Shown: positions 1-13,586 of the stretch, piece by piece | Position numbering within the stretch: the stretch's first letter is position 1 | Layout: each line of letters opens with the position of its first letter | IMG/VR virus record: IMGVR_UViG_2609460218_000016 | Span: 1-13,586 of that record | Strand: one strand, 5' to 3' | From: a virus | Lineage: Duplodnaviria > Heunggongvirae > Uroviricota > Caudoviricetes | DNA: 13,586 nucleotides | Notes under the pieces: generated by a model | Databases searched by the model: none | Seen by the model: the letters and a program-made list of their open reading frames with translations, nothing else | What the model was told of the DNA's origin: nothing | Position numbers and translations under genes: made by a program

Positions 1-1131
1 TCAAATGACCAGTTTTTTCCATTCCTTACCGCGTGCGTCGTTGTAAATATCGGTCATTTTTTGATTCGAATGGCCTAGCAAAATTTTGGTATCAACCCCC
101 TGCTCTCTTAACAATCGCTCTGATAAAGATCTCTGCTCATGGAAAGAGGGAGGGGTGCCATTAGCACGCCAGTTGTAATCCACAGAATCCCGGGCTTTTT
201 TAAATGCAACGGTTAATGTTGCTGGCTTAACCATCCCGCCGCGCTTAGCTGTCCCTTTCGCGTGATGGTGGTGCAATAGCCACGGACTAAGAACGCAATC
301 GCGGCAGGATGACACCACATCATCCAGGGTGAGATTTAATTTATCGCAACGCAGAGCCAGAGGGATGGCAATCCGGGTTCCTGTTTTTTGCTGTTCGACA
401 TGAAGATAACCATCCCGGATATCCGAAAATTGCATTTTGCAAATATCTGAAAGGCGCTGGCCTGTCATCAGTGCCAGCAGCATACCGCGCTGTAAAAAGT
501 AACCATCCTTTTCCGCTGCGTTATAAATCATCATCCACTCATCAAAAGTCAGTCGCTGTCTTGATATCCGCACCTGCGGTTTTTTTGCCGATTCTGCAGG
601 GTTAAAGCCTGGCGGGACATCGCCCGTTTGCTGAGCTTCCCGGAAAACATCGATCAGTACCTTCCTGAAAATTTGTCCCATTCTGTTATGTCCTCTGGCC
701 TTGTACTCTTCCAGTACTGATACCACATCTTTTACGGTTATGGCATCTAACGGTCTGGTGCCAAAACGTTCATCAAATACCCTGAGAGGGGCCGCTTTCT
801 GTTTCAGCGTGTTGAGTTTGATCTCGCCGTTTTCATATCTTTCCTGTTGAATTTTTCTGTAATTATTCAGAAAAATGGTAACGGTTGATGAACCGCCGGT
901 ATCACTAATAATTTTCTCCTGCAGACTGAGCATTTGTTCCATTTGCTGCCGGGCAAGACGGCTGTTCGCTTCTGCTGCAATAGTTTCTGCCAGTTTCTGG
1001 TCAATACTGCCGAGACCGTGATTTTTGCCTGTTATGGGATGCCTGTAACGCCAGTAAACTTTGTTATTTCTTTTGTCAAAATACGGAGATAATCCCGGAA
1101 CATTGGTTTTATATTTTCGCGGGCGCGCCAT
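1..1131 (-). CDS. int: Phage tyrosine integrase (lambda Int family)
   Basis: 376-aa minus-strand ORF. N-terminus (MARPRKYKTNVPGLSPYF..YWRYRHPITGK..GLG) and C-terminus (HEQRSLSERLL..LLGHSNQKMTDIYNDARGKEWKKLVI) resemble lambda Int. Sits at the prophage end next to an excisionase, with the lambda-like int/xis overlap. Confidence 0.9.
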   Translation of the reverse strand: MARPRKYKTNVPGLSPYFDKRNNKVYWRYRHPITGKNHGLGSIDQKLAETIAAEANSRLARQQMEQMLSLQEKIISDTGGSSTVTIFLNNYRKIQQERYENGEIKLNTLKQKAAPLRVFDERFGTRPLDAITVKDVVSVLEEYKARGHNRMGQIFRKVLIDVFREAQQTGDVPPGFNPAESAKKPQVRISRQRLTFDEWMMIYNAAEKDGYFLQRGMLLALMTGQRLSDICKMQFSDIRDGYLHVEQQKTGTRIAIPLALRCDKLNLTLDDVVSSCRDCVLSPWLLHHHHAKGTAKRGGMVKPATLTVAFKKARDSVDYNWRANGTPPSFHEQRSLSERLLREQGVDTKILLGHSNQKMTDIYNDARGKEWKKLVI

Positions 1132-1357
1132 CTTCCAGTATCCTCTTCAAAGCAGGGTGATCTGTGGCGATCACCTCCGGCTTGTTTACCATTCCGACAA
1201 AGCGAGCTTGCGGATCCACTCGCCAGCGTCTTCCAACTTTTTTGGGGAGAGGAAATATCATTCCGGCTTTAGCGTATTTACTTAACGTACTCGGAGTTGG
1301 GACCGGTTCACTGAATTCCTCTTTTGCCCACTCAGTGAGCAGAATAAGTCTTGCCAT
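1109..1357 (-). CDS. xis: Excisionase (Xis-like)
   Basis: 82-aa ORF directly upstream of int on the same strand, overlapping the int start by 23 nt. The motif GMIFPLPKKVGRRWRV resembles the lambda Xis DNA-binding region. Assignment by position and motif, not a search. Confidence 0.7.
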   Translation of the reverse strand: MARLILLTEWAKEEFSEPVPTPSTLSKYAKAGMIFPLPKKVGRRWRVDPQARFVGMVNKPEVIATDHPALKRILEDGAPAKI

Positions 1358-1421
1358 GAGCGTCGTTCGCTAATCATGGTCGCCGCCACTATAGCTGGTG
1401 GGCAACGACCGGGGTTGAACA

Positions 1422-3893
1422 TTAAAAATCAGCCTGATTCGGGATCAGTTTTTGCCAGATAACTGAAACGTATTTTGCCTGGTAACGGGCGTCATCAAGT
1501 GCATTATGGCGCTCACCTTCGAATGGAATAGCCGTTCTGGCATCGAAGTCTATGGCTTTCCCCAGCTCAACGATTGTGCGTACATCGCGATCGTTGTAGT
1601 AACGCCACGGGCAGGGGATCCCCTGCCGTTCGTATGAACGGCGCAAAATCGTGTTGTCGAAGTTGGCTCCATTTCCCCAAACCTGAACAAAAAATTCACC
1701 GGAGTTTTCGTCGATAAATTCCCGCAATTGTAACAGTGCATCATCTAACGGGATTTCATCGGTCATAATGGCAGATTGCGCTTCGCGTGATTGCTTAAGC
1801 CACCATTTAATGGTGTCCCGATCAATGACTCCGCCAGCAGTTTCCAGATCGATAGTCTTACTAAATTCCGGTCCCATATCTCCGGTTTGCGGATCGAAAA
1901 ATATTGCACCTATTGAGATGATCGGGGCATCAGGATTTTTTCCCATGGTTTCAAGGTCGATCATTAGATGGTCACACGTCCTGCTGGTGGATGTGATTTC
2001 GTGATGACCGTTCACCTTAATTGAGTGATCTGCCGTCTCGCCAGTTTCATTATCGCTATTGTGATGCTGATTGCCGCCAGTGTTCTCCTTGTGTGGATGT
2101 TCAGCGCCTTCCATTTCCTCCAGATCATCTTCCTGAACTTCAACCTGATACTCTTCATCGAATGTTTCCTGGTATGTTGCGTCGCCCATCACCGCGCCAC
2201 AATCAGGGCAGTTGCCGCCGCCGGTCTGACCGCAGGCGGTGCAGACTTTTTCCACTTCCAGTTGCGCCACTGGTTCAGGCTGTTTCGTTTCTGGCTCGTT
2301 TTGTAACGCATTTGTGCTGTTTTGTTCCGCTTTTTGGTAGTTCCGTTCCGATTCATGCTGGTTCTGGTTCACAGAATCGCGGGTCTGGATCCCCTTAACC
2401 CATTTCGGATCATTCGGGTCACTAATCCCTTCAACAAATTCACCACGTGATGCAGCAAGCAACTTATCGGCGTCAGGCTGGCTGATATTGGCTGCCTGCA
2501 TAATTTTGTTTACTTCGTCAGCGGTAACTTTTATCGGCTCTGGTTGTTCTGAATCTTCAGCGGTATCTACATTTTGCGGTAAGCCCGTGTATGTGCCATT
2601 TTTTCGGGCAAAATATTCTTCTTTTGTGATTTCAGTGGCGCCAGCAGCCAGTGCCTTATCCAGACCAGAAAGTTTGTTTGCGCGACCGTATTTTTCTCCG
2701 TCCTTATCTGCGAAGAGGAAATAGAACGGCCCCTCACGCTCTACAGATGGTTCAGCTTCCGGCGCGGTTTCATTTTTTGGGATATCAGATACCTCAGTTT
2801 CCACTGCATCAGTTTGTGTTTCTGATGACTGGAGAACATCAACAGTGCCCAGGTCTGTTTCTTCATTCTCAAACACGCCCTTTGTCGTCAGGTATTCGCA
2901 GATATATTTGTTCAGTGCTATGGGATCTTTGTGAATGTCGATCGGACGCTCACGGACAAGGCCAAAAATAGTCTGGCGGTCGTAGCGAAGGGCATCAGGC
3001 TGTTTGCGCATTGATGCCGAGATACGCTTCCAGTCTTCGCGGTCGTTGTCGATAACTTCTTTTTTTGCCCAGCGATGGATGCTGCCGTCAATGTTTCCGG
3101 CATCCACATCACCAGGCCAGAGAGCGTAGGCCAGTTCGTCATCCAGTGTTTTCCATGTCTGCTTGTATTCGCGATGAATGGCAGCAATGACCGGGCTGAT
3201 TTTTCCTGTTGAATTTTCAGTGTACTGTTGATTGGTTCTGGCGCGGGCGAGATCAACAACAGACGTGTATTTTCCGGTTTCCTTGCGTTCACCTTCGCGA
3301 CGTTTTTTCCAGATGCGCATCTCTGCCTGAATTTCGGGCCATTTAGCACCAGGAATACATTTATGCTTAACCCACCCAATGGCGTGCAACTTAAGCTCCG
3401 GATACATGGCGTTAACTTCTGGCATTTTCATCAACGCTTCAACGATATGTCCGTCGAATGTTGCCATGTCTTCCTGCAACAATTCCTGTGCGCTAATAAC
3501 CATATCAACGGTGATGTTTTCACATGTGTCGAACTTAACCATGACAGCGTTCTGTACTTCAGGGGCCAGCTTGTCAAAAGTGACGTTCATCGGATCGGAT
3601 TCAGTCTCAACCGGGACAAAAGAAGCAGACTCCTCATCCCAGCGGTTTTCCTGCATATATTCAGCATCCCATGAATCGAGGGCAGGGCGGGGTATGCCAG
3701 GTTTATCCTCGCAGACAATAAATTTATAAGCGCAGTCCTGAGCAGCCGGATAATGTTCCAGGAACTGCCAGTGAAATTTTGCTCGAGCACGGCGTTCGTC
3801 GCCAGCTTCAATGGCTGTGGCTACAGCCACAGCGCCTTCTTCCCTTGTTGCCAGTTCGTCAGGAATAGCGGCGCAAATAAAGACTTTACTCAT
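1422..3893 (-). CDS. Prophage exonuclease (exodeoxyribonuclease VIII-like, with C-terminal DnaQ/DEDDh-type 3'-5' exonuclease domain)
   Basis: 823-aa ORF with an SD-like GAGGT upstream of the ATG at 3893. The C-terminal ~190 aa carry DEDDh-like motifs (MIDLETMG, NGANFD, HNALDDARY). A CxxC..CxxC zinc ribbon (CTACGQTGGGNCPDCG) and a long acidic low-complexity linker precede it. It occupies the recombination-gene slot between xis and the immunity region. Confidence 0.8.
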   Translation of the reverse strand: MSKVFICAAIPDELATREEGAVAVATAIEAGDERRARAKFHWQFLEHYPAAQDCAYKFIVCEDKPGIPRPALDSWDAEYMQENRWDEESASFVPVETESDPMNVTFDKLAPEVQNAVMVKFDTCENITVDMVISAQELLQEDMATFDGHIVEALMKMPEVNAMYPELKLHAIGWVKHKCIPGAKWPEIQAEMRIWKKRREGERKETGKYTSVVDLARARTNQQYTENSTGKISPVIAAIHREYKQTWKTLDDELAYALWPGDVDAGNIDGSIHRWAKKEVIDNDREDWKRISASMRKQPDALRYDRQTIFGLVRERPIDIHKDPIALNKYICEYLTTKGVFENEETDLGTVDVLQSSETQTDAVETEVSDIPKNETAPEAEPSVEREGPFYFLFADKDGEKYGRANKLSGLDKALAAGATEITKEEYFARKNGTYTGLPQNVDTAEDSEQPEPIKVTADEVNKIMQAANISQPDADKLLAASRGEFVEGISDPNDPKWVKGIQTRDSVNQNQHESERNYQKAEQNSTNALQNEPETKQPEPVAQLEVEKVCTACGQTGGGNCPDCGAVMGDATYQETFDEEYQVEVQEDDLEEMEGAEHPHKENTGGNQHHNSDNETGETADHSIKVNGHHEITSTSRTCDHLMIDLETMGKNPDAPIISIGAIFFDPQTGDMGPEFSKTIDLETAGGVIDRDTIKWWLKQSREAQSAIMTDEIPLDDALLQLREFIDENSGEFFVQVWGNGANFDNTILRRSYERQGIPCPWRYYNDRDVRTIVELGKAIDFDARTAIPFEGERHNALDDARYQAKYVSVIWQKLIPNQADF

Positions 3894-3986
3894 TTTGTTT
3901 TAACCTCATGACAGATTTAAGGATGAACAAATCCCTGCCATTGCTGGCATATAAGAATGAAACCGGATATTTATTACGGAACTGTT

Positions 3987-4179
3987 TTAAAGACCTGCCG
4001 GGATTTCGATATTATCCTGGTGAATAACTTTATCGACCGGGTAACAGTTACCGGGAATTTTCTGTTCGGTTGCTGCAGTCATACACTCCTGCATTGTCCT
4101 GTGCACACTGACTGCAATATCAACTGGCTCTCCGGAAACAAGNAAAAACTGTCAGAACAAGCACAAATGCTGAATTCAT
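3987..4179 (-). CDS. Hypothetical small protein, frame interrupted at the ambiguous base 4143
   Basis: ATG at 4179..4177 overlaps the stop of the upstream ORF as ATGA. The frame stops after 19 codons unless the N at 4143 (in a T-run on the coding strand) is skipped, which gives about 63 aa (MNSAFVLVLTVF-LVSGEPVDIAVSVHRTMQECMTAATEQKIPGNCYPVDKVIHQDNIEIPAGL). Hydrophobic N-terminus. Weak call. Confidence 0.25.
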
Positions 4180-4364
4180 TGTGCACATCCTTTTGGCATC
4201 AGACGTAAACGAGCCAGCATTGAAACAATGCATATTTTATTTAATAGCTCCCGTTCTTGTTTTCTCTTGTTAATGGCATCTTCAGTAAATACTGGGTTAC
4301 TGATAGTGACACCAATTTCAAAACAACCTTCAGACGTATTAACGTTTGGTAATAACGTTTTCAT
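4176..4364 (-). CDS. Hypothetical small protein (62 aa; ORF extends to 4469 if the first ATG is used)
   Basis: Internal ATG at 4364 has an SD-like GAGGA 7 nt upstream. Its stop overlaps the next minus-strand ATG (ATGA at 4176-4179), suggesting translational coupling. No recognisable domain. Confidence 0.4.
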   Translation of the reverse strand: MKTLLPNVNTSEGCFEIGVTISNPVFTEDAINKRKQERELLNKICIVSMLARLRLMPKGCAQ

Positions 4365-4923
4365 TATCGCGTCCTCAACAATGAATTTTGTGATGCAGTG
4401 CCTGGTGCCTCCAGGTGACGTTAACCAGTTAACAATTAACGCCGGATACAGAGAATCCACCCATAACACTGTTTTTGGTTTTAACTGTTCCGCGTGCGCT
4501 CAGCCGCATTCACCACATCACAAAATTCACTTTAAAAAGGGCGGCAGAGCAGTCACGGAGTAAAACTGATACCGCCAAACGTCACCAGAAAATTGATAAC
4601 AGAGGGCGTTGCAGCGGGGTTGTCACTTAAGCGTATGGTCAACCTGACAACCCGGTGTCCTCAACGGGGGAAGGAATAACCCCGCCATACTTACCGCCGC
4701 ACCATTTCGCGGATTGCCACAACCGGAAGCGCACGGTCGAACTAAATTTAACGACACCGTACAGAGAGACCAATTTCGCCGTGCGCTTTCGCGTTATGCC
4801 CTGACTTTTCAGGGACATATCCTTTCAGTAAACTGTCAGTGCCGGATGTTCACCCGTGTCCGGCGCACGCACTCCACCTGACCCGTGGAGAACTCCTTAA
4901 TTACCAACCCTCAGGAGGGTGAA

Positions 4924-5202
4924 ATGGATAAAAAGCAAATTGAGGCCCTGCAATCTATTATTGAAAAACAAGATGAAGCTATCAGGATTCTTTCATATCG
5001 CACTGATATGATACTAAATATGCTTTCTGCATTAACGGCTGCGCTTGGTGGTACAAAAACAAACGTATACCGCGAAGTTGTTATTCAACAGATAGATAAA
5101 TTTGAAAAAACCATACCAGGTATTAATGCTCATCTTGCAGAACAAGAGAAAGACCATGCTCTTATGGCAATTTCTTCAGTAGCTCTCCCGAAAGTTGAGT
5201 AG
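4924..5202 (+). CDS. Hypothetical protein (92 aa, predicted helical)
   Basis: Strong SD (AGGAGG) 5 nt upstream of the ATG at 4924; the ORF track starts it at 4885. AT-rich codon usage. Convergent with the 133-aa minus-strand ORF and overlaps it by about 40 nt at the 3' ends. Function unknown. Confidence 0.4.
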   Translation: MDKKQIEALQSIIEKQDEAIRILSYRTDMILNMLSALTAALGGTKTNVYREVVIQQIDKFEKTIPGINAHLAEQEKDHALMAISSVALPKVE

Positions 5203-5563
5203 TTTTAATTGTTGTTTTGAAATAATCACTGCTTTCACATTTGAGTGATTTCATGGCAATCCAAATGCGGGCCTCTGTGCCTGCATTTGGTTCCAGTTGC
5301 TGTAGACGTTTTGCGTCTTCCAAAAGTAAGGCGATAATGTGTTTCAGCTTCTCATCATTTGCTTGATTCTTGTTTTCAGGCGAATTCTGTCCGCCGAATA
5401 GGCGCTTCTCTTCATACAGACCTATAAAGGCACGACGCACGTTACCGGATATAGTATCGATGGTTTCTTTTTCTACGGTACTCAGGTCAAGAGTCGCCAG
5501 TTGAGAGCGAACCACATTCGATGCCATTTCCTGGAATGGTACTGGTAAATCTTTAAATTCCAT
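5162..5563 (-). CDS. Hypothetical protein (about 133 aa)
   Basis: Minus-strand ORF with an SD-like GAGGT 5 nt upstream of the ATG at 5563. An alternative ATG at 5575 overlaps the upstream stop (TGATG). Second gene of the leftward operon after the candidate OL. No domain recognised. Confidence 0.55.
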   Translation of the reverse strand: MEFKDLPVPFQEMASNVVRSQLATLDLSTVEKETIDTISGNVRRAFIGLYEEKRLFGGQNSPENKNQANDEKLKHIIALLLEDAKRLQQLEPNAGTEARIWIAMKSLKCESSDYFKTTIKTTQLSGELLKKLP

Positions 5564-5574
5564 CGTCAACCTCA

Positions 5575-5808
5575 TCAGTCAGTGTTTCTGGTTAACCAGC
5601 GACGCGCGCCAGCTTCAGTTTTAAACGTTTTGCTTCTGGTATACGTCATCGCGGTAAACGTGCCGTCCTGGTTGGGGAATACGCCACATACCAGAGATTC
5701 GTTGTTGCCAAGATTGAGCATATCCATGTTGACCTCATTTCCCCTTAACGCCGGGGTAGCGGAACAAAAACCTGCTGCATAGTTATTAAAGTTGAACCCT
5801 GCCGTCAT
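5575..5808 (-). CDS. Hypothetical small protein, first gene leftward of the immunity region (possible Kil-like position)
   Basis: 77-aa ORF, or about 50 aa from the internal ATG at 5727, which has an SD-like GAGGT. Stop is coupled to the next ORF start. It sits just downstream of the candidate OL operator. The C-terminal motif TEAGARRWL is noted, but any Kil assignment is speculative. Confidence 0.45.
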   Translation of the reverse strand: MTAGFNFNNYAAGFCSATPALRGNEVNMDMLNLGNNESLVCGVFPNQDGTFTAMTYTRSKTFKTEAGARRWLTRNTD

Positions 5809-5910
5809 GTTCTTACGCCTCGGGCTGGCTACTTAACCCCTGACCACTGCCTGGTAACTCGAAGTATTGCCCTGCATTCTGTGGGGCGGGGTGGGTTGGT
5901 ATGTTGTTAA

Positions 5911-5926
5911 GGTAACAAGAGTTACC
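5911..5926. promoter_or_regulatory. Candidate OL operator: palindrome GGTAAC-AAGA-GTTACC
   Basis: Perfect GTAAC-N4-GTTAC inverted repeat, the same core as the two palindromes between the repressor and cro-like genes. A TTGACT hexamer lies just upstream on the minus strand. Located between the repressor terminator and the first leftward gene. Confidence 0.4.
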
Positions 5927-5965
5927 TTTCGAGTCAATACAATGTTGCAAAAGGTACATTTGAGG

Positions 5966-5995
5966 GCATAAAAAACCCGCAATGAATGCGGGTTC
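5966..5995 (-). terminator. Rho-independent terminator downstream of the repressor reading frame
   Basis: On the minus strand: 7-bp GC-rich stem (ACCCGCA / TGCGGGT, 5975-5981 and 5987-5993) with a 5-nt loop, followed by TTTTTTAT. It lies immediately after the stop (6002..6000) of the reconstructed repressor C-terminal frame. Confidence 0.55.
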
Positions 5996-5999
5996 TGAC

Positions 6000-6292
6000 T
6001 CAGTCTAAGTATTGATGTATTTGTGAAACTTTACCTTTAATGGTGTAACCACCATTCAGTTCGATGGGTTTGTAAAGCGGATTCAGTGACAACAGATAGA
6101 TGTTTGGTCCGTCAATCGCAACNTTTTTTTAGTGTTACGTTTGGCGTTCCTTCCAATTGGATTAAGATTATTTTTCCCACCAGTTCTCTAATGTTACTTG
6201 AGCATGGTGTGATCAGCACGGTAGATCCGTCGGGGATGGTTGGGAGGCCGTTAGAGTTTGTCATCGCATCTCCCTCAACATGCAATNAAAAA
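6000..6292 (-). other. Out-of-frame continuation encoding the S24 (LexA/CI-type) peptidase-like C-terminal domain of the repressor
   Basis: Skipping the ambiguous bases at 6287 and 6123 (both beside homopolymer runs) joins the repressor ORF to ..NSF-L-LHVEGDAMTNSNGLPTIPDGSTVLITP..GKIILIQLEGTPNVTLKK-VAIDGPNIYLLSLNPLYKPIELNGGYTIKGKVSQIHQYLD*. This aligns by eye with the lambda CI C-terminal domain (FWLEVEGNSM..FTFKKLIRD..LNPQYPMI..GKVI). Stop at 6002..6000. Confidence 0.6.
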
Positions 6293-6775
6293 AGAGTTTT
6301 CAGCGGTTTTTGTCATGACATCAACCCAATTCTTAATACCAGGAATCTCGGTTACTGGACAACTCATATCCCAATAACCAGCCTGTTCCCACGTTAAAAC
6401 GGGCAACCGGGCGATGTTGTCACTAATGTAAGGGTACTGATTCAGACGCAGATCATCGGCTTTATCGTGACCGTCCTTTCCATAAAGAATCCATTCAGGA
6501 GATTTGGAAAGCAATTTTGACAGTAGATACAAATTCTCACCGTCAGGTTTTGAAGAGCCATTTTCCCATTTTGTTACGGATACACGAGATATGCCGATTG
6601 CTTTCGCAACCTGCTGTTGGGTTAATCCAACGTCTTTTCGACGATTCCGAATACGTTCGCTGATAGTGTTTTTCATGTAACCAATGTTACTACCAAGTGA
6701 TGTTGCTATGGTTGACATTGTTATGTAACTATTGTTACCCTTCTGCTCGAAATAACAGGAGAGTTTTATGTTCAA
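6275..6775 (-). CDS. CI-like phage repressor, N-terminal HTH (XRE-family) portion as assembled
   Basis: Helix-turn-helix motif LTQQQVAKAIGISRVSVTKWENG, divergent from a cro-like gene. The true start is more likely the internal ATG at 6718 or 6676 (MKNTISERIRNRRK..), since a start at 6775 would overlap the cro-like start. The frame ends at 6275 just after ..PVLTWEQAGYWD..ENSF, the beginning of an S24 domain. Confidence 0.8.
   Translation of the reverse strand: MNIKLSCYFEQKGNNSYITMSTIATSLGSNIGYMKNTISERIRNRRKDVGLTQQQVAKAIGISRVSVTKWENGSSKPDGENLYLLSKLLSKSPEWILYGKDGHDKADDLRLNQYPYISDNIARLPVLTWEQAGYWDMSCPVTEIPGIKNWVDVMTKTAENSFXIAC
6677..6738. promoter_or_regulatory. Candidate OR operator pair (GTAAC-N4-GTTAC at 6677-6690 and 6725-6738) with a rightward promoter -35 (TTGACA 6712-6717)
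   Basis: Two perfect 14-bp palindromes, GTAACCAATGTTAC and GTAACTATTGTTAC, lie between the divergent repressor and cro-like genes. A consensus TTGACA sits between them. The -10 element is not clear. Confidence 0.45.
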
Positions 6776-6983
6776 AGATGATGTTCTGCGCTATTTCAAA
6801 AAAAAGCGACTAGTAGCTGAGGCTCTTGGAATTTCACATGTGGCTGTTGTGCGGTGGAAAGCAGTTATTCCCAAACTTCGCGCAATGGAACTGGATGAAA
6901 TTACTAACAGTGAATTGAAATACAACCCAGAACTTTACAAGAAGCAGGATAGCACCTCAAACGAAGGAAAGAATGATTCATGA
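6768..6983 (+). CDS. Cro/YdaS-like small HTH regulator
   Basis: 71-aa ORF with SD AGGAG 7 nt upstream, divergent from the repressor. HTH (LVAEALGISHVAVVRWK) followed by the IPKLRAMELDEITNSELKYNPELY pattern typical of YdaS-family proteins. Stop overlaps the next gene start (ATGA). Confidence 0.8.
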   Translation: MFKDDVLRYFKKKRLVAEALGISHVAVVRWKAVIPKLRAMELDEITNSELKYNPELYKKQDSTSNEGKNDS

Positions 6984-7405
6984 AAATCAAGCATGAACAC
7001 ATCCGCATGGCGATGAATGTCTGGGCGCATCCGGACGGCGAAAAAGTACCGGCTGCGAAAATTACCAAAGCGTATTTCGAGCTGGGAATGACGTTCCCGG
7101 AACTGTATGACGACAGCCATCCGGAAGCCCTGGCCCGTAATACCCAGAAAATTTTCCGTTGGCTGGATAAAGACACCCCTGATGCTGTTGAAAAAATGCA
7201 GGCTCTGTTACCGGCGATCGAAAAGGCGATGCCGCCTTTGCTGGTGGCCCGTATGCGTAGCCACAGTTCTGAATATTACCGTGATATCGTCGAACGGAGG
7301 GATCGGCTGGTGAAGGATGTCGATGATTTTGTTGCGTCAGCGGTTGTTTTGTATGACCAGATGAATCGCGGCGGCCCGGCAGGGAATGCTGTGGTGATGC
7401 ACTAA
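6980..7405 (+). CDS. YdaT-like protein (CII-position gene of Rac-like prophages)
   Basis: 141-aa ORF beginning MKIKHEHI and ending ..VVMH, which matches my recollection of the Rac prophage YdaT family. Translationally coupled to the cro-like gene. Confidence 0.75.
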   Translation: MKIKHEHIRMAMNVWAHPDGEKVPAAKITKAYFELGMTFPELYDDSHPEALARNTQKIFRWLDKDTPDAVEKMQALLPAIEKAMPPLLVARMRSHSSEYYRDIVERRDRLVKDVDDFVASAVVLYDQMNRGGPAGNAVVMH

Positions 7406-7427
7406 AAGCACGGTGTTCGGGGGTTTT

Positions 7428-8390
7428 ATGAGCAGCAAGCTTCATGGTCTTGTCTGGGAAGGGTGCGCCTTCACCGGCATGATCTTATCCAGGGTGGCGG
7501 TTATGGCCCGTCTTGCAGACTACAGCAATGACGAGGGCGTGTCATGGCCTGCCATTGAAACTATCCGGCGTCAGATCGGTGCAAGAAGTGAATCCACAGT
7601 GAAATCGGCTATTGCAGAACTGGCGAAAGAGGGCTGGCTGACGAAGGAAGAGCGTAAGGTCGGTGGGCGTAATGTAAGCAATATCTATCGGCTTAATGTG
7701 GAAAAACTCGAAGCAGCTGCGGCGGCGGCGCGTGAGTCATATAAACCGAAAAGAAAAATTAGCCCGGCAAAAAATGACCCGTTAACAGTTGACCCGTCAA
7801 ATATTGACCCCTCAACGGTTGACCCGTCAAATTTTGATGGATCAACTGTTGATAAAAAACTGCCGATTANGGGGCCGATGATTGACCCCGATCCGTCAGT
7901 ATTAAAACCTGATCCGTCAGATAAAAGATCTTCTTGTCCGGACGCTTCGCAACCGGACCCGCAGACGGCTGAACAGGATTTTTTAACCCGACACCCTGAC
8001 GCGGTTGTGTTCAGTGCGAAAAAACGCCAGTGGGGAAGTCAGGAAGATTTGGTGTGCGCACAGTGGATCTGGGGACGAATCGTGAGTCTTTACGAGCAGG
8101 CGGCCAGCTATGATGGCGAGATCACTAGACCGAAAGAACCCAACTGGACAGCATGGGCCAATGACGTTCGCACAATGCGGATGCTGGATGGCAGAACTCA
8201 CAGACAAATTTGTGAAATGTTTGGGCGTCTCCAGCGGGATTCGTTCTGGGTAAAAAACATCATGAGTCCGGCAAAACTCCGGGAAAAATGGGATGAACTG
8301 GTTATCCGCCTGGGGCGTTCGCCTGCGCAGCGTTGCGTGAATCACATTTCTGAACCGGACACTGAAATACCGCCGGGATTCAGGGGGTGA
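7428..8390 (+). CDS. Phage replication initiator (O-like, HTH-containing)
   Basis: ORF track starts at a GTG (7413); the ATG at 7428 is preferred. N-terminal winged-helix region, four palindromic iterons inside the coding sequence, and a C-terminal domain followed directly by a DnaC-like gene. Contains the ambiguous base 7869. Confidence 0.8.
   Translation: MSSKLHGLVWEGCAFTGMILSRVAVMARLADYSNDEGVSWPAIETIRRQIGARSESTVKSAIAELAKEGWLTKEERKVGGRNVSNIYRLNVEKLEAAAAAARESYKPKRKISPAKNDPLTVDPSNIDPSTVDPSNFDGSTVDKKLPIXGPMIDPDPSVLKPDPSDKRSSCPDASQPDPQTAEQDFLTRHPDAVVFSAKKRQWGSQEDLVCAQWIWGRIVSLYEQAASYDGEITRPKEPNWTAWANDVRTMRMLDGRTHRQICEMFGRLQRDSFWVKNIMSPAKLREKWDELVIRLGRSPAQRCVNHISEPDTEIPPGFRG
7789..7845. repeat. 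Origin-like iteron array: four 12-bp palindromic repeats at 15-bp spacing inside the initiator gene
   Basis: TTGACCCGTCAA (7789-7800), TTGACCCCTCAA (7804-7815), TTGACCCGTCAA (7819-7830) and TTGATGGATCAA (7834-7845). Followed by an A-rich stretch and two GATCCGTCAG repeats with GATC sites at 7890-7920. Same arrangement as lambda ori inside gene O. Confidence 0.6.
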
Positions 8391-8396
8391 CGTGTC

Positions 8397-9143
8397 ATGA
8401 AAAACATTGCGGCAGGCGGCGTTCTTGAACGTATCCGAAGACTGGCTCCGCCACATGTAACCGCCCCATTCAGAACGGTAGCGGAGTGGCACGAGTGGCA
8501 ACTTGCTGAAGGCCAGAAACGTAGCGAGGAGATCAACCGCCTGAATCGCCAGTTGCGGGTGGAAAAAATTCTGAATCGCTCAGGCATCCAGCCGTTGCAC
8601 CGTAAATGCTCGTTTGCGAATTACCAGGTGCAGAACGACGGTCAGCGATACGCGTTGAGCCAGGCGAAATCTATCGCTGATGAACTGATGACCGGATGCA
8701 CAAATTTCGCGTTTAGCGGAAAACCTGGTACCGGGAAGAACCACTTAGCAGCAGCTATCGGGAATCGCCTGCTGAAAGACGGTCAGACAGTGATTGTGGT
8801 TACCGTNGCTGATGTTATGAGTGCCCTCCACGCCAGCTATGACGATGGGCAGTCAGGCGAAAAATTTTTGCGGGAACTGTGCGAAGTGGATCTGCTGGTT
8901 CTTGATGAAATTGGCATTCAGCGCGAGACGAAAAACGAGCAGGTGGTACTGCACCAGATTGTTGATCGCCGGACAGCGTCGATGCGCAGCGTGGGGATGC
9001 TGACAAACCTGAACTATGAGGCCATGAAAACATTGCTCGGCGAGCGGATTATGGATCGCATGACCATGAACGGCGGGCTATGGGTGAATTTTAACTGGGA
9101 GAGCTGGCGTCCGAATGTCGTCCAGCCAGGAATTGCGAAGTAA
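8397..9143 (+). CDS. DnaC-family replicative helicase loader (AAA+ ATPase)
   Basis: 248-aa ORF with Walker A ([15 protein letters not shown]) and Walker B (DLLVLDEIG). Reads as collinear with E. coli DnaC along its length (e.g. [31 protein letters not shown]). Contains the ambiguous base 8807, in frame. Confidence 0.9.
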
Positions 9144-9165
9144 TTTTTACCGGGAGAAAAATTTA

Positions 9166-9927
9166 ATGGAGACTGTTTTTGACGCACTGAAAGCAATGGG
9201 AAAAGCCACATCCATAGAACTTGCTGCGCGACTTGATATCAGTCGTGAAGAAGTGCTGAACGAACTATGGGAACTGAAAAAGGCTGGTTTTGTTGATAAA
9301 AGCGCGTACACCTGGCGTGTGGCTGATAACAACGTTCAGCAGGAACAGCCAGCGCAGGCAGAACTGCCGGAAGAAATCACCACAGCAACAGTAGCGAAAA
9401 TCTCAGAGTGCGATTTAACCGCGACGATTGAACAACGAGGACCACAAACGGCTGATGAGCTGGCTACATTGTTTGGTACCACATCACGCAAAGTGGCTTC
9501 AACGCTGGCAATGGCAATCAGCAAAGGTCGTCTGATTCGCGTAAATCAGGGCGGTAAATTTCGTTACTGCATACCGGGCGATAATTTACCAGCAGAGCCG
9601 AAAGCAGCATCGGTAGCGGAAACTGATGGTAAGGCCTTTCCTCATACCGCAGGTGTTGCGTTACCAGTACAGGAGGCTGCAACACAGGAAGATATTAAAA
9701 CAGAAACTGTGGCGGACATTGTGCAGTCGCTGCCATCGTTTACTGAAACGCGAGCGGATGACCTGGTTTTACCATCACTGCATATGGCAAACCGCGAACT
9801 GCGTCGGGCGAAAAATCATGTCCAGAAGTGGGAGCGAGTCTGCGCCGCGCTGCGGGAGCTGAACAAGCACCGGGATATTGTTCGACAGATTACTGATTCT
9901 TCCCGCCGTGTTGTATCGGAAAAGTGA
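9166..9927 (+). CDS. Hypothetical prophage protein with two predicted winged-helix modules
   Basis: ATG at 9166 with an upstream GGAG; the ORF track starts at 9115. Two HTH-like segments ([30 protein letters not shown] and [33 protein letters not shown]). Follows the DnaC-like gene. Confidence 0.7.
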
Positions 9928-9942
9928 TTGCCGGAGGCGCTT

Positions 9943-10374
9943 ATGGCAAAAGTATTTACACAAGAAGAGCGGGAAAAAATTAAAGGGCAGGTTGTTGAGC
10001 TAGTACGCCGGAGTGGGCGCGAGACGTTACGGCAACTGGAAGCCAAGACAGGTGCGACAAGATATCTGATGAGCGTTCTCGCCAGAGAGCTGGTTGCCAG
10101 TGGCGATGTATACAACTCTGGTTACGGGTTATTCCCGTCTGAACAGGCTCGTAAGGACTGGCAAAATGCCCGCAAAAAACTATCCAGGGCAAAGGTGAAG
10201 AAACCATCTGTGGTTGATCCGGACCTTATCTGGTCATTACCAGACGGAGAAATACGCCGCTACGACAGGCGTCTGAACATAATCTGTCGCGAGTGCCGGA
10301 AGAGCGAAGTTATGCAGCGTGTGCTGGCGTTTTATCAGAATGGTTTTCGAGAGAGGCTTGGAGATCANGGATGA
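9943..10374 (+). CDS. Hypothetical prophage protein
   Basis: ATG at 9943 with SD GGAGG 5 nt upstream. Basic, with a single CxxC. The ambiguous base 10368 lies two codons before the stop. Confidence 0.65.
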   Translation: MAKVFTQEEREKIKGQVVELVRRSGRETLRQLEAKTGATRYLMSVLARELVASGDVYNSGYGLFPSEQARKDWQNARKKLSRAKVKKPSVVDPDLIWSLPDGEIRRYDRRLNIICRECRKSEVMQRVLAFYQNGFRERLGDXG

Positions 10375-10566
10375 ATAGAACGATGAAGGATGGAAGCTAC
10401 ATATTCTCGGTACTAAGATTTATTTTTCTGACACAAAATGACCATTTGGCGTTACATAATCCAAAAAAACGTATCAAAAATCTCAAAATGCGTTACGATT
10501 AGAGAGTATTTTGATTCTGCGTGCTCATTTTTTGATTGCTGTGGCTTTTTGTTGTGGGAGTGTTGA

Positions 10567-11721
10567 ATGGATTATTTATCAGAAGTGTTAAAAATCATTG
10601 AAGGTGCAACAAAGGCAAATGCTTCGATGGCTAGTAATTATGCTGGGTTGCTGGCAGATAAGCTCGAACAAAAAGGGGAGGTCAAGCAAGCCAGAATGAT
10701 AAGAGAAAGGTTGCTTAGAGCTCCCCAGGCGTTGGCAGGAGCTCAAAGGGCTGGAGGTGGGATATCTCTGGGCTCATTACCGGTAGATATTGATAGTCGA
10801 CTCAACACTGTTGATGTCAGTTATCCTAAATTAGACAGTTCAGAGATTTTTCTGCCTGCAGCAATCAGTACCCGTGTTGAAGAGTTTATCACTAATGTTC
10901 AACGTTATGATGAGTTTGTTAAAGCTGATGCAGCATTGCCGAGTCGTATGCTCGTGTATGGAAAGCCAGGAACAGGTAAGACTATGTTATCTAAGTACAT
11001 CGCTACCCGCTTAGATTTTCCACTTCTTACAGTGCGTTGCGATACTTTGATTAGTAGTTTATTGGGACAAACCAGCAAAAATCTTAGACAGGTTTTCGAT
11101 TATGTAATGCAGAGGCCATCAGTGCTTTTTTTAGACGAATTTGATGCTTTAGCTGGAGCAAGAGGTAATGAGAGAGATATAGGTGAGCTTCAGCGAGTTG
11201 TCATTTCACTATTGCAGAATATGGATGCGGCATCAGAGGATACGGTAATTATTGCCTCAACTAACCATGAGCAACTTCTGGATCCTGCAATCTGGAGGCG
11301 ATTTAGCTTCAGAATTCCAATGCCTCTGCCTGACATACATCAGAGAGAGTTAATTTGGAAAAATCGTTTAAAGAATATGATATGTAGCGATCTAGATTTA
11401 AGTGATTTATCAAGAAAATCGGAGGGATTATCCGGAGCAATAATTGAACAGGTGAGCTTGGATGCACGTAGGGATGCAGTTATTGAAGGTGCAAGTGTGA
11501 TAAATCACCATAAATTGTATAGGCGTTTGTATCTTGCGCAATCGCTTATGGAAGGTGTAAATTTAAGCACTTACGAAGATGAAATTCGTTGGTTACGTTC
11601 TAAAGATAAAAAATTATTTTCTATCAGAGTTCTTGCTAATTTGTACAAACTTACATCAAGAGTAATTTCAAACATTCTGAAGGAGTCAGGAGCATATGAG
11701 CAGAAGGGGTACACAGTTTAG
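10567..11721 (+). CDS. AAA+ ATPase (classical AAA clade), putative ATPase subunit of a two-gene defence module (IetA-like architecture)
   Basis: 384-aa ORF with SD GGGAG upstream. Walker A GKPGTGKT, Walker B VLFLDEFD, sensor-1 IIASTN, and the second region of homology / Arg finger DPAIWRRF. The N-terminal ~120 aa have no recognisable domain. The gene is markedly AT-rich compared with the phage backbone. Confidence 0.9.
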   Translation: MDYLSEVLKIIEGATKANASMASNYAGLLADKLEQKGEVKQARMIRERLLRAPQALAGAQRAGGGISLGSLPVDIDSRLNTVDVSYPKLDSSEIFLPAAISTRVEEFITNVQRYDEFVKADAALPSRMLVYGKPGTGKTMLSKYIATRLDFPLLTVRCDTLISSLLGQTSKNLRQVFDYVMQRPSVLFLDEFDALAGARGNERDIGELQRVVISLLQNMDAASEDTVIIASTNHEQLLDPAIWRRFSFRIPMPLPDIHQRELIWKNRLKNMICSDLDLSDLSRKSEGLSGAIIEQVSLDARRDAVIEGASVINHHKLYRRLYLAQSLMEGVNLSTYEDEIRWLRSKDKKLFSIRVLANLYKLTSRVISNILKESGAYEQKGYTV

Positions 11722-13321
11722 TAACGCAAAAGTTACAAACCCAATGTTAAGAATCCCTTTTTCCAGTAGTGACTTGGGTGCAATAGTAAACGCTGGCGGT
11801 GGGGCAAAGGTATTGGTTGATGTAACAGCCGAATATAGACAAGGGCTAGTAAGAAATTTAACAACCAGTAAACATTATTTAGAATCCAAACTTTCAGAGT
11901 ACCCTGGAAGCTTGGGTACTTTGGTTTTCAAATTAAGAGACCAGGGAATAGCCAAAACGCATAGGCCGAACAAAATTGCTCAAGAGGCTGGATTGCAAAA
12001 TGCCGGTCATGCCAAAATAGATGAAATGTTGGTTGCTGCTCATGCCGGCTGTTTTGACGTATTAGAGTCAGTCATTTTACATCGGAATATTAAAGCGATT
12101 TTGGCTAATCTAAGCGCGATTGAGCGCATTGAACCTTGGGATGAGAATAGGAAGGTTCCAGGAGGCACTGATGGTTTGTTTGAATCATCAAACATCCTTG
12201 TACGACTATTTGAGTACACAGGTGAAGATGCAACTTACAACAACTATGAAAACGTTATTTCTATATTAGAACAACACGGAGTTAAATATGATGAGATTAG
12301 ACCAAAATGTGGTCTTCCCTTATTAAGGATAATGGATTTATCCCCAAATGATAGATATATATTAGACATTCTCATTGATTACCCGGGTATAAGAACGTTA
12401 ATTCCAGAACCAAAATATTCAGCATTCCCGGTTAGTGTAAGTGATTCTGTTGGCATTGAAACAAATAGCTTTCCCGTACCATCAGAAGAATTACCCATTG
12501 TTGCTGTATTTGACACTGGGGTAAGCCCCATCGCGGCAACAATTACTCCTTGGGTAGTGAGTAGGGAAACATACGTAATTCCTCCTGATACGAGTTATGA
12601 ACATGGGACTATGGTGTCTTCATTGATATCAGGCGCTCATTTTTTAAATGACAATCATCCATGGATTCCTGATACAAAATCTAAAATCCATGATGTTTGT
12701 GCTTTAGATGAAAATGGATCTTATATATCAGATTTAATTCTGAGGCTAGCAGATGCTGTAAATAAAAGACCAGATATAAAAGTCTGGAATTTATCTTTGG
12801 GAGGCGGACCATGTAATGAGCAGATGTTTAGTGATTTTGCGATGGAGTTAGATCGGCTCAGCGATAAATTTGGTATTTTGTTTGTAGTTGCTGCAGGTAA
12901 TTATGTAGATGAACCTATACGTACATGGCCAAATCCTGATCCGCTTGGAGGTGCTGATTTAATTTCCTCTCCTGGAGAGTCAGTCCGAGCACTAACAGTT
13001 GGTTCAGTTTCTCATATGGAAGCTAATGATGCTTTAAGTGAAATTGGAACACCGACACCATATACTCGTCGTGGCCCTGGGCCTGTATTTACTCCAAAGC
13101 CAGATATAATCCATGCTGGCGGTGGGGTTCATAGACCTTGGAATGTAGGAGCAAGCAGTTTAAAGGTCGTAGGGCCAGATAATAGGCTTTGCTCTAATTT
13201 TGGTACTAGTTTTGCTGCTCCAATTGTGGCAAGTTTAGCTGCGCATACATGGCAGAGAATAGCCACTAATTCAGACTTTAATGTTTCACCGGCTTTGTTG
13301 AATAAATCAGATTTCGGGTAA
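11696..13321 (+). CDS. S8-family subtilisin-like serine peptidase, 3' end interrupted by IS insertion (IetS-like architecture)
   Basis: All four S8 catalytic motifs are present in order: Asp (VAVFDTGVS), His (HGTMVSS), Asn (VWNLSLGG) and Ser (GTSFAAP). The start overlaps the ATPase stop by 26 nt, indicating an operon. The last 10 codons and the stop are encoded by the IS terminal repeat starting at 13291, so the native C-terminus is missing or displaced. An alternative start is the ATG at 11744. Confidence 0.85.
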   Translation: MSRRGTQFSNAKVTNPMLRIPFSSSDLGAIVNAGGGAKVLVDVTAEYRQGLVRNLTTSKHYLESKLSEYPGSLGTLVFKLRDQGIAKTHRPNKIAQEAGLQNAGHAKIDEMLVAAHAGCFDVLESVILHRNIKAILANLSAIERIEPWDENRKVPGGTDGLFESSNILVRLFEYTGEDATYNNYENVISILEQHGVKYDEIRPKCGLPLLRIMDLSPNDRYILDILIDYPGIRTLIPEPKYSAFPVSVSDSVGIETNSFPVPSEELPIVAVFDTGVSPIAATITPWVVSRETYVIPPDTSYEHGTMVSSLISGAHFLNDNHPWIPDTKSKIHDVCALDENGSYISDLILRLADAVNKRPDIKVWNLSLGGGPCNEQMFSDFAMELDRLSDKFGILFVVAAGNYVDEPIRTWPNPDPLGGADLISSPGESVRALTVGSVSHMEANDALSEIGTPTPYTRRGPGPVFTPKPDIIHAGGGVHRPWNVGASSLKVVGPDNRLCSNFGTSFAAPIVASLAAHTWQRIATNSDFNVSPALLNKSDFG

Positions 13322-13586
13322 GTCTCCCCCGTAGCGGGTTGTGTTTTCAGGCAATACGCACGCTTTCAGGCATACCTGCTTTCGTCATTTTGTTCAGCGC
13401 TCGTACCAGGGCCATAGCCTCCGCAACCTGACCATCGTAGTCACGCAGCGTCAGTGAACCCCCGAACAGCTGTTTTACCCGGTACATCGCCGTTTCCGCT
13501 ATCGAGCGACGGTTGTAATCTGTTGTCCATTTCCACCGCGCATTACTCCCGGTCATTCGCTGATTAGCCACTGCACGGTTACGGTC
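13291..13586 (-). mobile_element. IS903-group (IS5 family) insertion sequence, partial, running off the window end
   Basis: The terminal sequence GGCTTTGTTGAATAAATC at 13291-13308 matches the IS903/IS102 inverted repeat as I recall it. The adjacent minus-strand ORF ends ..MTKAGMPESVRIA, which I recognise as the IS903 transposase C-terminus. Confidence 0.8.
13347..13586 (-). CDS. IS903-family transposase, C-terminal fragment (gene continues beyond the window)
   Basis: Minus-strand ORF open to the window edge. Translation ..RRSIAETAMYRVKQLFGGSLTLRDYDGQVAEAMALVRALNKMTKAGMPESVRIA*. Confidence 0.75.
   Translation of the reverse strand, partial: DRNRAVANQRMTGSNARWKWTTDYNRRSIAETAMYRVKQLFGGSLTLRDYDGQVAEAMALVRALNKMTKAGMPESVRIA

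Follow-up and report, generated by a model that had tools for sequence, protein, structure and literature searches.

A lambda CI-type repressor in an Escherichia coli prophage carries alanine at the catalytic serine position and is most likely a natural non-cleavable allele

The virus record IMGVR_UViG_2609460218_000016 from IMG/VR, analysed here over positions 1 to 13,586 (the whole 13,586-nucleotide stretch, hereafter the window), comes from a lambdoid Escherichia coli prophage beside ompW, with an early region of the YdaS/YdaT (Rac/Qin-like) type. We studied its cI-type repressor gene, which occupies 6000-6718 on the minus strand and is interrupted in the assembly by two ambiguous bases. 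Self-cleavage of the repressor is the textbook trigger of prophage induction; in this protein, Ala stands where the cleaving Ser would be expected. The overall explanation we favour, at a probability of roughly 0.7, is a full-length CI-type repressor whose frame breaks are artefacts, which works through three operators and which is naturally non-cleavable and blind to the SOS response.

The open reading frame (ORF) as assembled covers 6275-6775 on the minus strand and ends at a stop codon at 6275-6277, as the initial annotation had noted. That annotation also proposed that dropping the Ns at 6123 and 6287 restores a continuous frame with an S24 pattern, and so it proved: with both Ns deleted, three frame segments fuse into a single ORF of 238 codons plus a stop, from the ATG at 6718-6716 to the stop at 6002-6000 on the minus strand. 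Its translation runs through FLLHVEGDAMTNSNG, TLKKVAIDG, LNPLYKPI and GKV to QYLD before the stop, and the same product can be read from SFLLHVEGDAMTNSNG to VTLKKVAIDGPNIYLLSLNPLYKPIELNGGYTIKGKVSQIHQYLD at its end; it comprises a helix-turn-helix (HTH) domain, a linker with an Ala-Gly pair and a C-terminal S24-fold domain. Both Ns do lie beside homopolymers, again as first remarked. On the plus strand, a T7 run (A7 on the coding strand) adjoins N6123, which comes directly after two Lys codons, and an A6 run (A6/T6) adjoins N6287, the source of the apparent stop.

Complete genomes identify both Ns as spurious extra bases. Each falls in a gap relative to E. coli 300709, and without them the region 5960-6790 is identical to that strain at 829/829 bases, the two N columns being the only gaps; two further genomes are likewise identical to the N-free region, and removal of N6287 gives an exact match in three sequences (L001, L013 and L014). 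In 300709 the gene is annotated as an intact 238-amino-acid "LexA family protein" (WP_000103686.1), and the repressor carries this annotation in every E. coli genome match listed. The 831-nt region 5960-6790 was matched in 702 of 5,426 complete E. coli genomes, 594 of them at 99% identity or more. From these alignments, both frame breaks in the repressor are most likely base-calling artefacts and the gene is most likely full length.

Profile searches recognized both domains of the corrected protein. Pfam returned HTH_3 at 3.8e-17 and, confirming S24 homology in the corrected frame, Peptidase_S24 (PF00717) at 1.1e-16 over model positions 1-115 of 116, and the best PHROG was phrog_4, a transcriptional repressor. 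In a phmmer search against solved structures the best match was the full-length lambda repressor (3bdn; 4.8e-14, residues 25-231), and the N-terminal domain is 42% identical to that of P22 C2, with a template-modelling (TM) score of 0.94. For fold comparison we used an AlphaFold2 (AF2) model built from P0001, which is 98% identical to the window protein and has an identical C-terminal domain; its mean predicted local distance difference test (pLDDT) score is 75.7. Foldseek placed the lambda repressor structure 3bdn first and LexA structures after it, and matched the C-terminal domains of both lambda CI and LexA at a probability of 1.00. Judged by sequence and by model, then, the corrected gene reads as a full-length lambda-CI-type immunity repressor with the S24/CI-family fold.

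The catalytic serine column is where this repressor departs from its family. Ala151, encoded by GCG at 6265-6267 on the minus strand (Ala137 if translation begins at Met15), stands in the column that holds the nucleophilic Ser in lambda CI (S149) and in LexA (S119). The other two elements that characterize an active S24 peptidase are present: Lys197 of the pair Lys197-Lys198 (AAA AAA, 6124-6129, minus strand) aligns with the general base (lambda CI K192, LexA K156), and Ala113-Gly114 (GCT GGT, 6376-6381, minus strand) aligns with the cleavage site (lambda CI A111-G112, LexA A84-G85). The lambda and LexA numbering is consistent with the PDB alignments. The phmmer alignments to 3bdn and 2ho0 pair VEGDAMT with lambda VEGNSMT, TLKKV with TFKKL and EQAGYW with VQAGMF. 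We then aligned 122 sequences with MAFFT, namely lambda CI, LexA and 120 full-length cluster representatives of the subfamily, drawn from a profile search of a 5.8-billion-protein set. Among the 120 representatives, the nucleophile column holds Ser in 116, Ala in three and Lys in one, a degenerate Arsenophonus copy; the general-base column is Lys in all 120, and the scissile bond is Ala-Gly in 111. The Ala codon at the catalytic position, claimed in the initial annotation, is thus upheld by phmmer, by MAFFT and by the fold comparison, and no Ser aligns there in its stead.

Two further patterns appear in the same alignment. A sub-clade from symbionts of insects and plants (P0010-P0014 and P0016, from Arsenophonus and Symbiopectobacterium) keeps the Ser and the Lys and has IS, LS or VS in place of Ala-Gly, which is a different route to an altered cleavage apparatus. 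In P0021, from Arsenophonus nasoniae, the whole GDSM motif is gone.

Because the nucleophile is Ala, we propose that self-cleavage stimulated by activated RecA would be impossible for this protein. Slilaty and Little reportedly found in 1987 that the S119A substitution removes both the autodigestion of LexA and its RecA-mediated cleavage, and Ser-to-Ala LexA proteins are the standard non-cleavable forms among PDB structures (1jhh, 1jhc, 6a2s and 8s7g). By analogy with the published behaviour of LexA S119A and of lambda ind-, we infer a repressor that activated RecA does not induce to cleave itself, and the allele is most likely a natural "ind-" form blind to RecA. In terms of classification, the protein belongs to the S24/CI family by its fold, lacks the Ser nucleophile that defines an active S24 peptidase, and would function in the manner of lambda ind-.

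The Ala allele is neither an isolated error nor a decaying remnant. We searched complete E. coli genomes with a 55-nt query centred on the first base of the codon, so that each 28-nt megablast seed was forced to include that base, and found GCG in the window's own context in at least 683 of 5,426 (about 12.6%, or around one in eight). Close relatives are encoded at 80 IMG/VR loci, every one with GCG at codon 151 and an intact 238-codon ORF; they represent 17 protein alleles that vary mainly in residues 5-10 and in the linker. The equivalent TCG query in the window's 55-nt context matched none of the complete E. coli genomes, a search that misses Ser alleles because their haplotypes carry synonymous changes no more than 13 nt away from codon 151; with an O55:H7-type context, TCG was found in eight complete genomes. 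This Ser allele, WP_000104592.1, is 94.6% identical to the window protein, and five of its eight genomes are named O55:H7. A second one, WP_028985609.1 (TCA, 87.4% identical), is the repressor of a Shiga toxin 2d (Stx2d)-converting prophage at yccA in a group of eight genomes, with E. coli STEC434 as host (L096; 8063-9303 and 20007-20723). Further Ala alleles are P0002 (89%, GCG) and P0005 from Salmonella (68%, GCA), and further Ser alleles are P0003 (87%, TCA) and P0006 (65%, TCG). The Ala allele is dominant in E. coli and its Ser-bearing sister alleles are rare. Ala is the derived state at codon 151, with Ser in nearly all subfamily representatives and the closest Ser alleles, 95% and 87% identical, having the same operators.

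Neighbour-joining trees interleave the two states. The O55:H7 Ser allele falls inside or beside the main Ala clade, the Ala-bearing P0002 lies outside that clade and the O55:H7 allele, and the TCA Ser alleles are further out, a topology that requires at least three changes at codon 151, in a tree that lacks bootstrap support and where recombination is likely. Sites 451 and 459 show a four-gamete conflict, for which homoplasy at a synonymous site is an equally good explanation. Additionally, we compared two Ala alleles for the ratio of non-synonymous to synonymous substitution rates (dN/dS). The C-terminal domain gave 0.054 at a dS of 0.65 (11 non-synonymous and 42 synonymous differences) and the N-terminal part 0.23. 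Measured in this way, the S24 domain is not decaying and is under strong purifying selection.

The regulatory DNA around the gene is organized around a 14-bp palindrome, GTAAC-N4-GTTAC, of which the window has exactly three copies where chance would give 0.25. Two copies lie in the right operator region (OR): GTAACCAATGTTAC at 6677-6690 adjoins the cI start and abuts the Met15 ATG, and GTAACTATTGTTAC at 6725-6738 lies 7 nt downstream of a plus-strand TTGACA (6712-6717), overlapping the presumed core of the rightward promoter (PR) for cro. The third, GTAACAAGAGTTAC at 5912-5925, forms the left operator (OL), preceded by a TTGACT (5937-5932, minus strand) and 6 nt, which we take as the presumed leftward promoter (PL). 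The three positions are kept in relatives from 98% down to 65% protein identity, including the Ser-type Stx2d prophage, and the block AAGGTAACAATAGTTACAT with its TTGACA hexamer is invariant in five relatives. The O55:H7 Ser allele has two exact operators and a cI-start site that differs by one base, and the palindrome is absent from the heteroimmune relative L002. PR, PL and the repressor's own promoter (PRM, after its lambda counterpart) are tentatively assigned from -35 hexamers and operator positions only.

These operators also bear on where translation begins. The annotated first 14 codons, MSTIATSLGSNIGY (6677-6718), overlap two DNA signals: an operator, GTAACATTGGTTAC, read as NIGY, and the cro-facing TTGACA -35 hexamer, whose reverse complement ATGTCAACC is read as MST. 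Many homologues begin at Met15 (ATG at 6674-6676, minus strand), and residues 1-13 of the AF2 model have pLDDT below 50. Since homologues start there, the NIGY codons are operator sequence and the preceding residues are poorly modelled, the true start is most likely Met15, giving a protein of 224 amino acids. Conservation of the first 14 codons then probably reflects DNA signals rather than protein, and the repressor mRNA is probably leaderless or short-leadered, as at lambda PRM. At the other end of the gene, folding of 5967-5995 on the minus strand supports the initial report of a terminator beside the repressor stop: this stretch forms an intrinsic hairpin with a U-run at -16.7 kcal/mol (z -4.27), as good as which none of 200 shuffles folded. 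A consensus terminator scan missed the hairpin at 5967-5995.

The flanking genes complete a CI-type switch layout, with a divergent cro that shares the operator region and a second operator at the leftward promoter. The cro-like gene at 6768-6983 on the plus strand is of the YdaS/P22_Cro type (PHROG 409, transcriptional regulator, 1.5e-21; RefSeq Cro/CI family regulator), and its relatives carry the Pfam domain P22_Cro. It is followed on the same strand by a CII-like gene of the YdaT family at 6980-7405 (PHROG 163, CII-like activator, 5e-47; RefSeq YdaT family protein). YdaS and YdaT have been described as regulators of the PaaR2 switch, and the likeness of YdaT to CII has been discussed (PMC8630535). 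Leftward of the repressor lies an operon of DUF1391, dicB, ydfD, an exonuclease gene (exo), xis and int.

From this anatomy we predict the following mechanism. A repressor dimer would bind the three palindromes through its P22-C2-like HTH domain and repress PR and PL: one operator overlaps the putative rightward promoter of cro, ydaT and the replication genes, another the putative leftward promoter of the operon from DUF1391 through dicB, ydfD, exo and xis to int, and the third abuts the repressor's own start codon, which would allow autoregulation. The C-terminal S24-fold domain would provide dimerization and cooperativity. With S151A, equivalent to lambda S149A and LexA S119A, activated RecA would not stimulate cleavage, and the prophage with its toxic dicB and ydfD genes would stay silent during SOS; it is plausible that the prophage is not SOS-inducible in the classical way, as first suggested. 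Lambda ind- is trans-dominant over ind+, and because the Ser relatives share the operators and a near-identical recognition helix, the Ala protein should be trans-dominant as well, so that it may prevail over homoimmune Ser-type phages.

Several points weigh against the view of a non-cleavable, SOS-blind repressor. Non-cleavability is carried over from other family members by analogy. Lys197, the Ala-Gly site and the whole domain have been kept, and selection could act on them for something beyond dimerization, such as binding of activated RecA or cleavage in trans. A consensus sigma-70 promoter scan of 5800-6850 returned none. Among isolated-phage records no relative above 60% identity was found for either allele type (best 44%), which is uninformative on inducibility because the Ser-type alleles are absent too. 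Lesions do not discriminate either. All four sampled Ala-type prophages are damaged, with a structural-gene deletion in 300709, insertion sequence (IS) insertions and a frameshifted integrase in O111 RM9322, a frameshifted integrase in UPEC129 and a large terminase gene that contains IS66 in ETEC6; since IS elements and frameshifts are present in the Ser-type Stx2d prophage too, we rejected defectiveness as a correlate of the Ala allele. Finally, the lysis module of this related Stx2d prophage includes a gene annotated as "phage antirepressor protein". In STEC434 the antirepressor gene lies between the lysozyme and Rz-like genes.

That last point bears on the strongest alternative, in which the repressor is non-cleavable and the prophage is nonetheless inducible, possibly by SOS, through an antirepressor from the late region or from a co-resident prophage, in the manner of Gifsy, N15 or 186. 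With the Ser dispensable, its repeated loss in this clade would be explained, and the interleaving of Ser and Ala in the gene tree suggests that the lineage can manage without cleavage; trans-acting antirepressors that work on non-cleavable repressors are a precedent (PMC3121763). Yet neither the window nor the annotated early regions showed an antirepressor-like gene, in a survey that did not cover late regions and co-resident prophages exhaustively, and none is listed in the sampled Ala-type prophages. The window has no LexA box at 14/20 or better, and the sole LexA-like box of the sampled prophages stands where a DNA methyltransferase gene begins rather than at ant. We hold this alternative to be unlikely. 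The box in question, TACTGTAAAAATATCCAGTT, matches the consensus at 16/20 and lies downstream of Q in three related prophages, outside the window (L002 35279, L012 2270 and L014 11587); the scan that detected it also recovered the known sulA box as positive control.

Far less probable is that the gene is a real double-frameshift pseudogene in this isolate, with the Ns as true extra bases and a truncated product of about 150 amino acids made of HTH and linker. Two frame breaks are indeed present in the assembly, and the initial annotation had left room for a real frameshifted remnant beside the artefact that it also considered. However, every non-N base is identical to intact alleles in complete genomes, the 80 IMG/VR loci include no frameshifted copy, and the E. 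coli genome matches listed are annotated normally. The remaining Ns point the same way. The window has six single Ns, at 4143, 6123, 6287, 7870, 8807 and 10368; against the closest complete genomes, the first three are extra bases beside A/T runs and the last three are each a plainly miscalled G. The artefact is thus the favoured alternative, on the identity to intact alleles, the intact loci and the likewise spurious N4143. N4143 adjoins an A5 run in a different gene, and because it is an artefact of the same kind, ORFs across 4143 will appear frameshifted.

Least credible of all, to the point of being nearly negligible, is that the repressor is classically SOS-inducible and cleaves itself through a nearby hydroxyl group, that of Thr153 or Ser155 in GDAMTNSNG, or through an activated water: strong purifying selection on Lys197, the Ala-Gly site and the S24 fold might speak for it, but Thr153 is an implausible substitute because lambda CI has the same SMT context and its Ser-to-Ala or ind- state keeps that Thr, and LexA S119A is stable enough to have been crystallized uncleaved (1jhh, 1jhc and others).

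The repressor travels as part of a mosaic. Compared with L002, the immunity cassette has been exchanged as one block, from a joint at about 5903 to another at about 6974, and these joints are classic lambdoid module exchange. MLI104K2, the closest sequence to the rest of the window (99-99.9% on both sides), has a wholly different cassette between the same positions, and strain 300709 shares the cassette and diverges to the right of about 8395. The same repressor is found in prophages at three sites, ompW, yccA and a tRNA-Ser next to mtfA. We considered Sakai Sp4 as an experimentally studied host of this repressor and rejected it, as it carries a PaaR2 cassette. In Sp4 (E. coli O157:H7, L015 17457-18364), also at yccA, a PaaR2-type repressor and toxin-antitoxin cassette replaces this CI. 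The contents of the yccA prophages therefore indicate that one backbone is in circulation with three or more types of immunity, based on an HTH-only repressor, on an S24 repressor with Ser and on an S24 repressor with Ala.

At the right end of the window, positions 10567-13321 hold a two-gene anti-phage system, identified through RefSeq relatives as IteA (an AAA ATPase of 384 amino acids) and IteS (an S8 subtilase). It is a moron, with the replication genes on one side and the DUF968, RusA and Q genes on the other. Similarity to the MLI104K2 iteS ends at 13290, and the window ORF has 541 amino acids against 754 there. The sequence after 13290, beginning GGCTTTGTTGAATAAATCAG, resembles an IS903-type inverted repeat, and 13290-13586 on the minus strand gives a weak Pfam match to the C-terminal end of a DDE transposase, which at 2e-4 does not reach the curated cut-off. 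With similarity ending where IS-like sequence begins, iteS appears to be truncated by an IS element.

Set against known systems, the repressor is closest to lambda CI (3bdn, 2ho0 and 1f39), its best match in sequence and fold, with which it shares an HTH domain joined to an S24-fold C-terminal domain and an aligned Ala-Gly site and Lys general base. The two switches have in common a divergent cro, palindromic OR and OL operators and a terminator after cI. The window repressor differs in being only about 24-28% identical to lambda CI and in having Ala in place of Ser149, and its switch differs in using GTAAC-N4-GTTAC, with two exact sites in OR and one in OL, and in having partners of the YdaS/YdaT type rather than lambda Cro and CII. 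LexA S119A (1jhh, 1jhc), Mycobacterium tuberculosis LexA S160A (6a2s), Pseudomonas aeruginosa LexA S125A (8s7g) and lambda cI ind- have the same nucleophile substitution, with Lys and cleavage site intact as here. Those are laboratory mutants, whereas the window repressor is a natural allele found in hundreds of genomes and kept under purifying selection. WP_000104592.1 and WP_028985609.1, presumably homoimmune, share its length, cro/ydaT neighbours and the sequence and positions of its operators and differ in having Ser151 (TCG and TCA, respectively).

Non-cleavable immunity repressors that do not respond to SOS are already known; here the whole cleavage apparatus is kept except the nucleophile. 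DicA of Qin, RacR of Rac and PaaR2 of CP-933P and Sakai Sp4 have the same role, being divergent from cro and cII genes that are YdaS-like and YdaT-like, respectively, and silencing a leftward operon with dicB- or kil-type toxic genes. DicA and RacR are short HTH proteins, as is PaaR2; the window repressor is unlike all three in having a full S24-fold domain in which only the nucleophile is lost. N15 CB and 186 CI are non-cleavable repressors controlled by antirepressors. PaaR2 does not respond to SOS and has no peptidase motif (PMC8630535). The Gifsy-1 and Gifsy-3 immunity repressors are not substrates of activated RecA and are controlled by LexA-regulated antirepressors (PMC3121763), of which we found none in the window or the sampled early regions. 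According to a survey of Stx phages, the autocleavage Ser is present in every one of their S24-type CI clades, and CI proteins engineered to be non-cleavable have served in work on these phages (PMC8951638). In a limited literature search, WP_000103686 was not mentioned and no natural Ser-to-Ala CI was described.

A more tentative idea is that codon 151 serves as an evolutionary toggle, with at least three flips between Ser (O55:H7 lineage and Stx2d prophages) and Ala (main E. coli, P0002 and Salmonella alleles) in one immunity group acting as a single-base switch between SOS-inducible and SOS-blind states, and with the spread of Ala through E. coli possibly as a host-protective sweep. This idea, together with trans-dominance, rests for now on a small tree without bootstrap support. 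If it is true, a dominant non-cleavable repressor could silence dicB- and kil-type genes and block the induction of homoimmune Ser-type phages, including those that convert for Stx2d.

The two apparent frameshifts are no grounds for annotating the repressor as a pseudogene. The Ala allele is real, common in E. coli and, on the substitution pattern, maintained by selection, and it may be labile over evolutionary time. If the biochemistry holds, a single base change, not the loss of a domain, would have grounded this prophage, the allele would offer a natural system for asking what S24 domains do besides cleavage, and codon 151 would predict which lambdoid prophages, including Stx2d relatives with the same operators, do not respond to SOS-inducing antibiotics.

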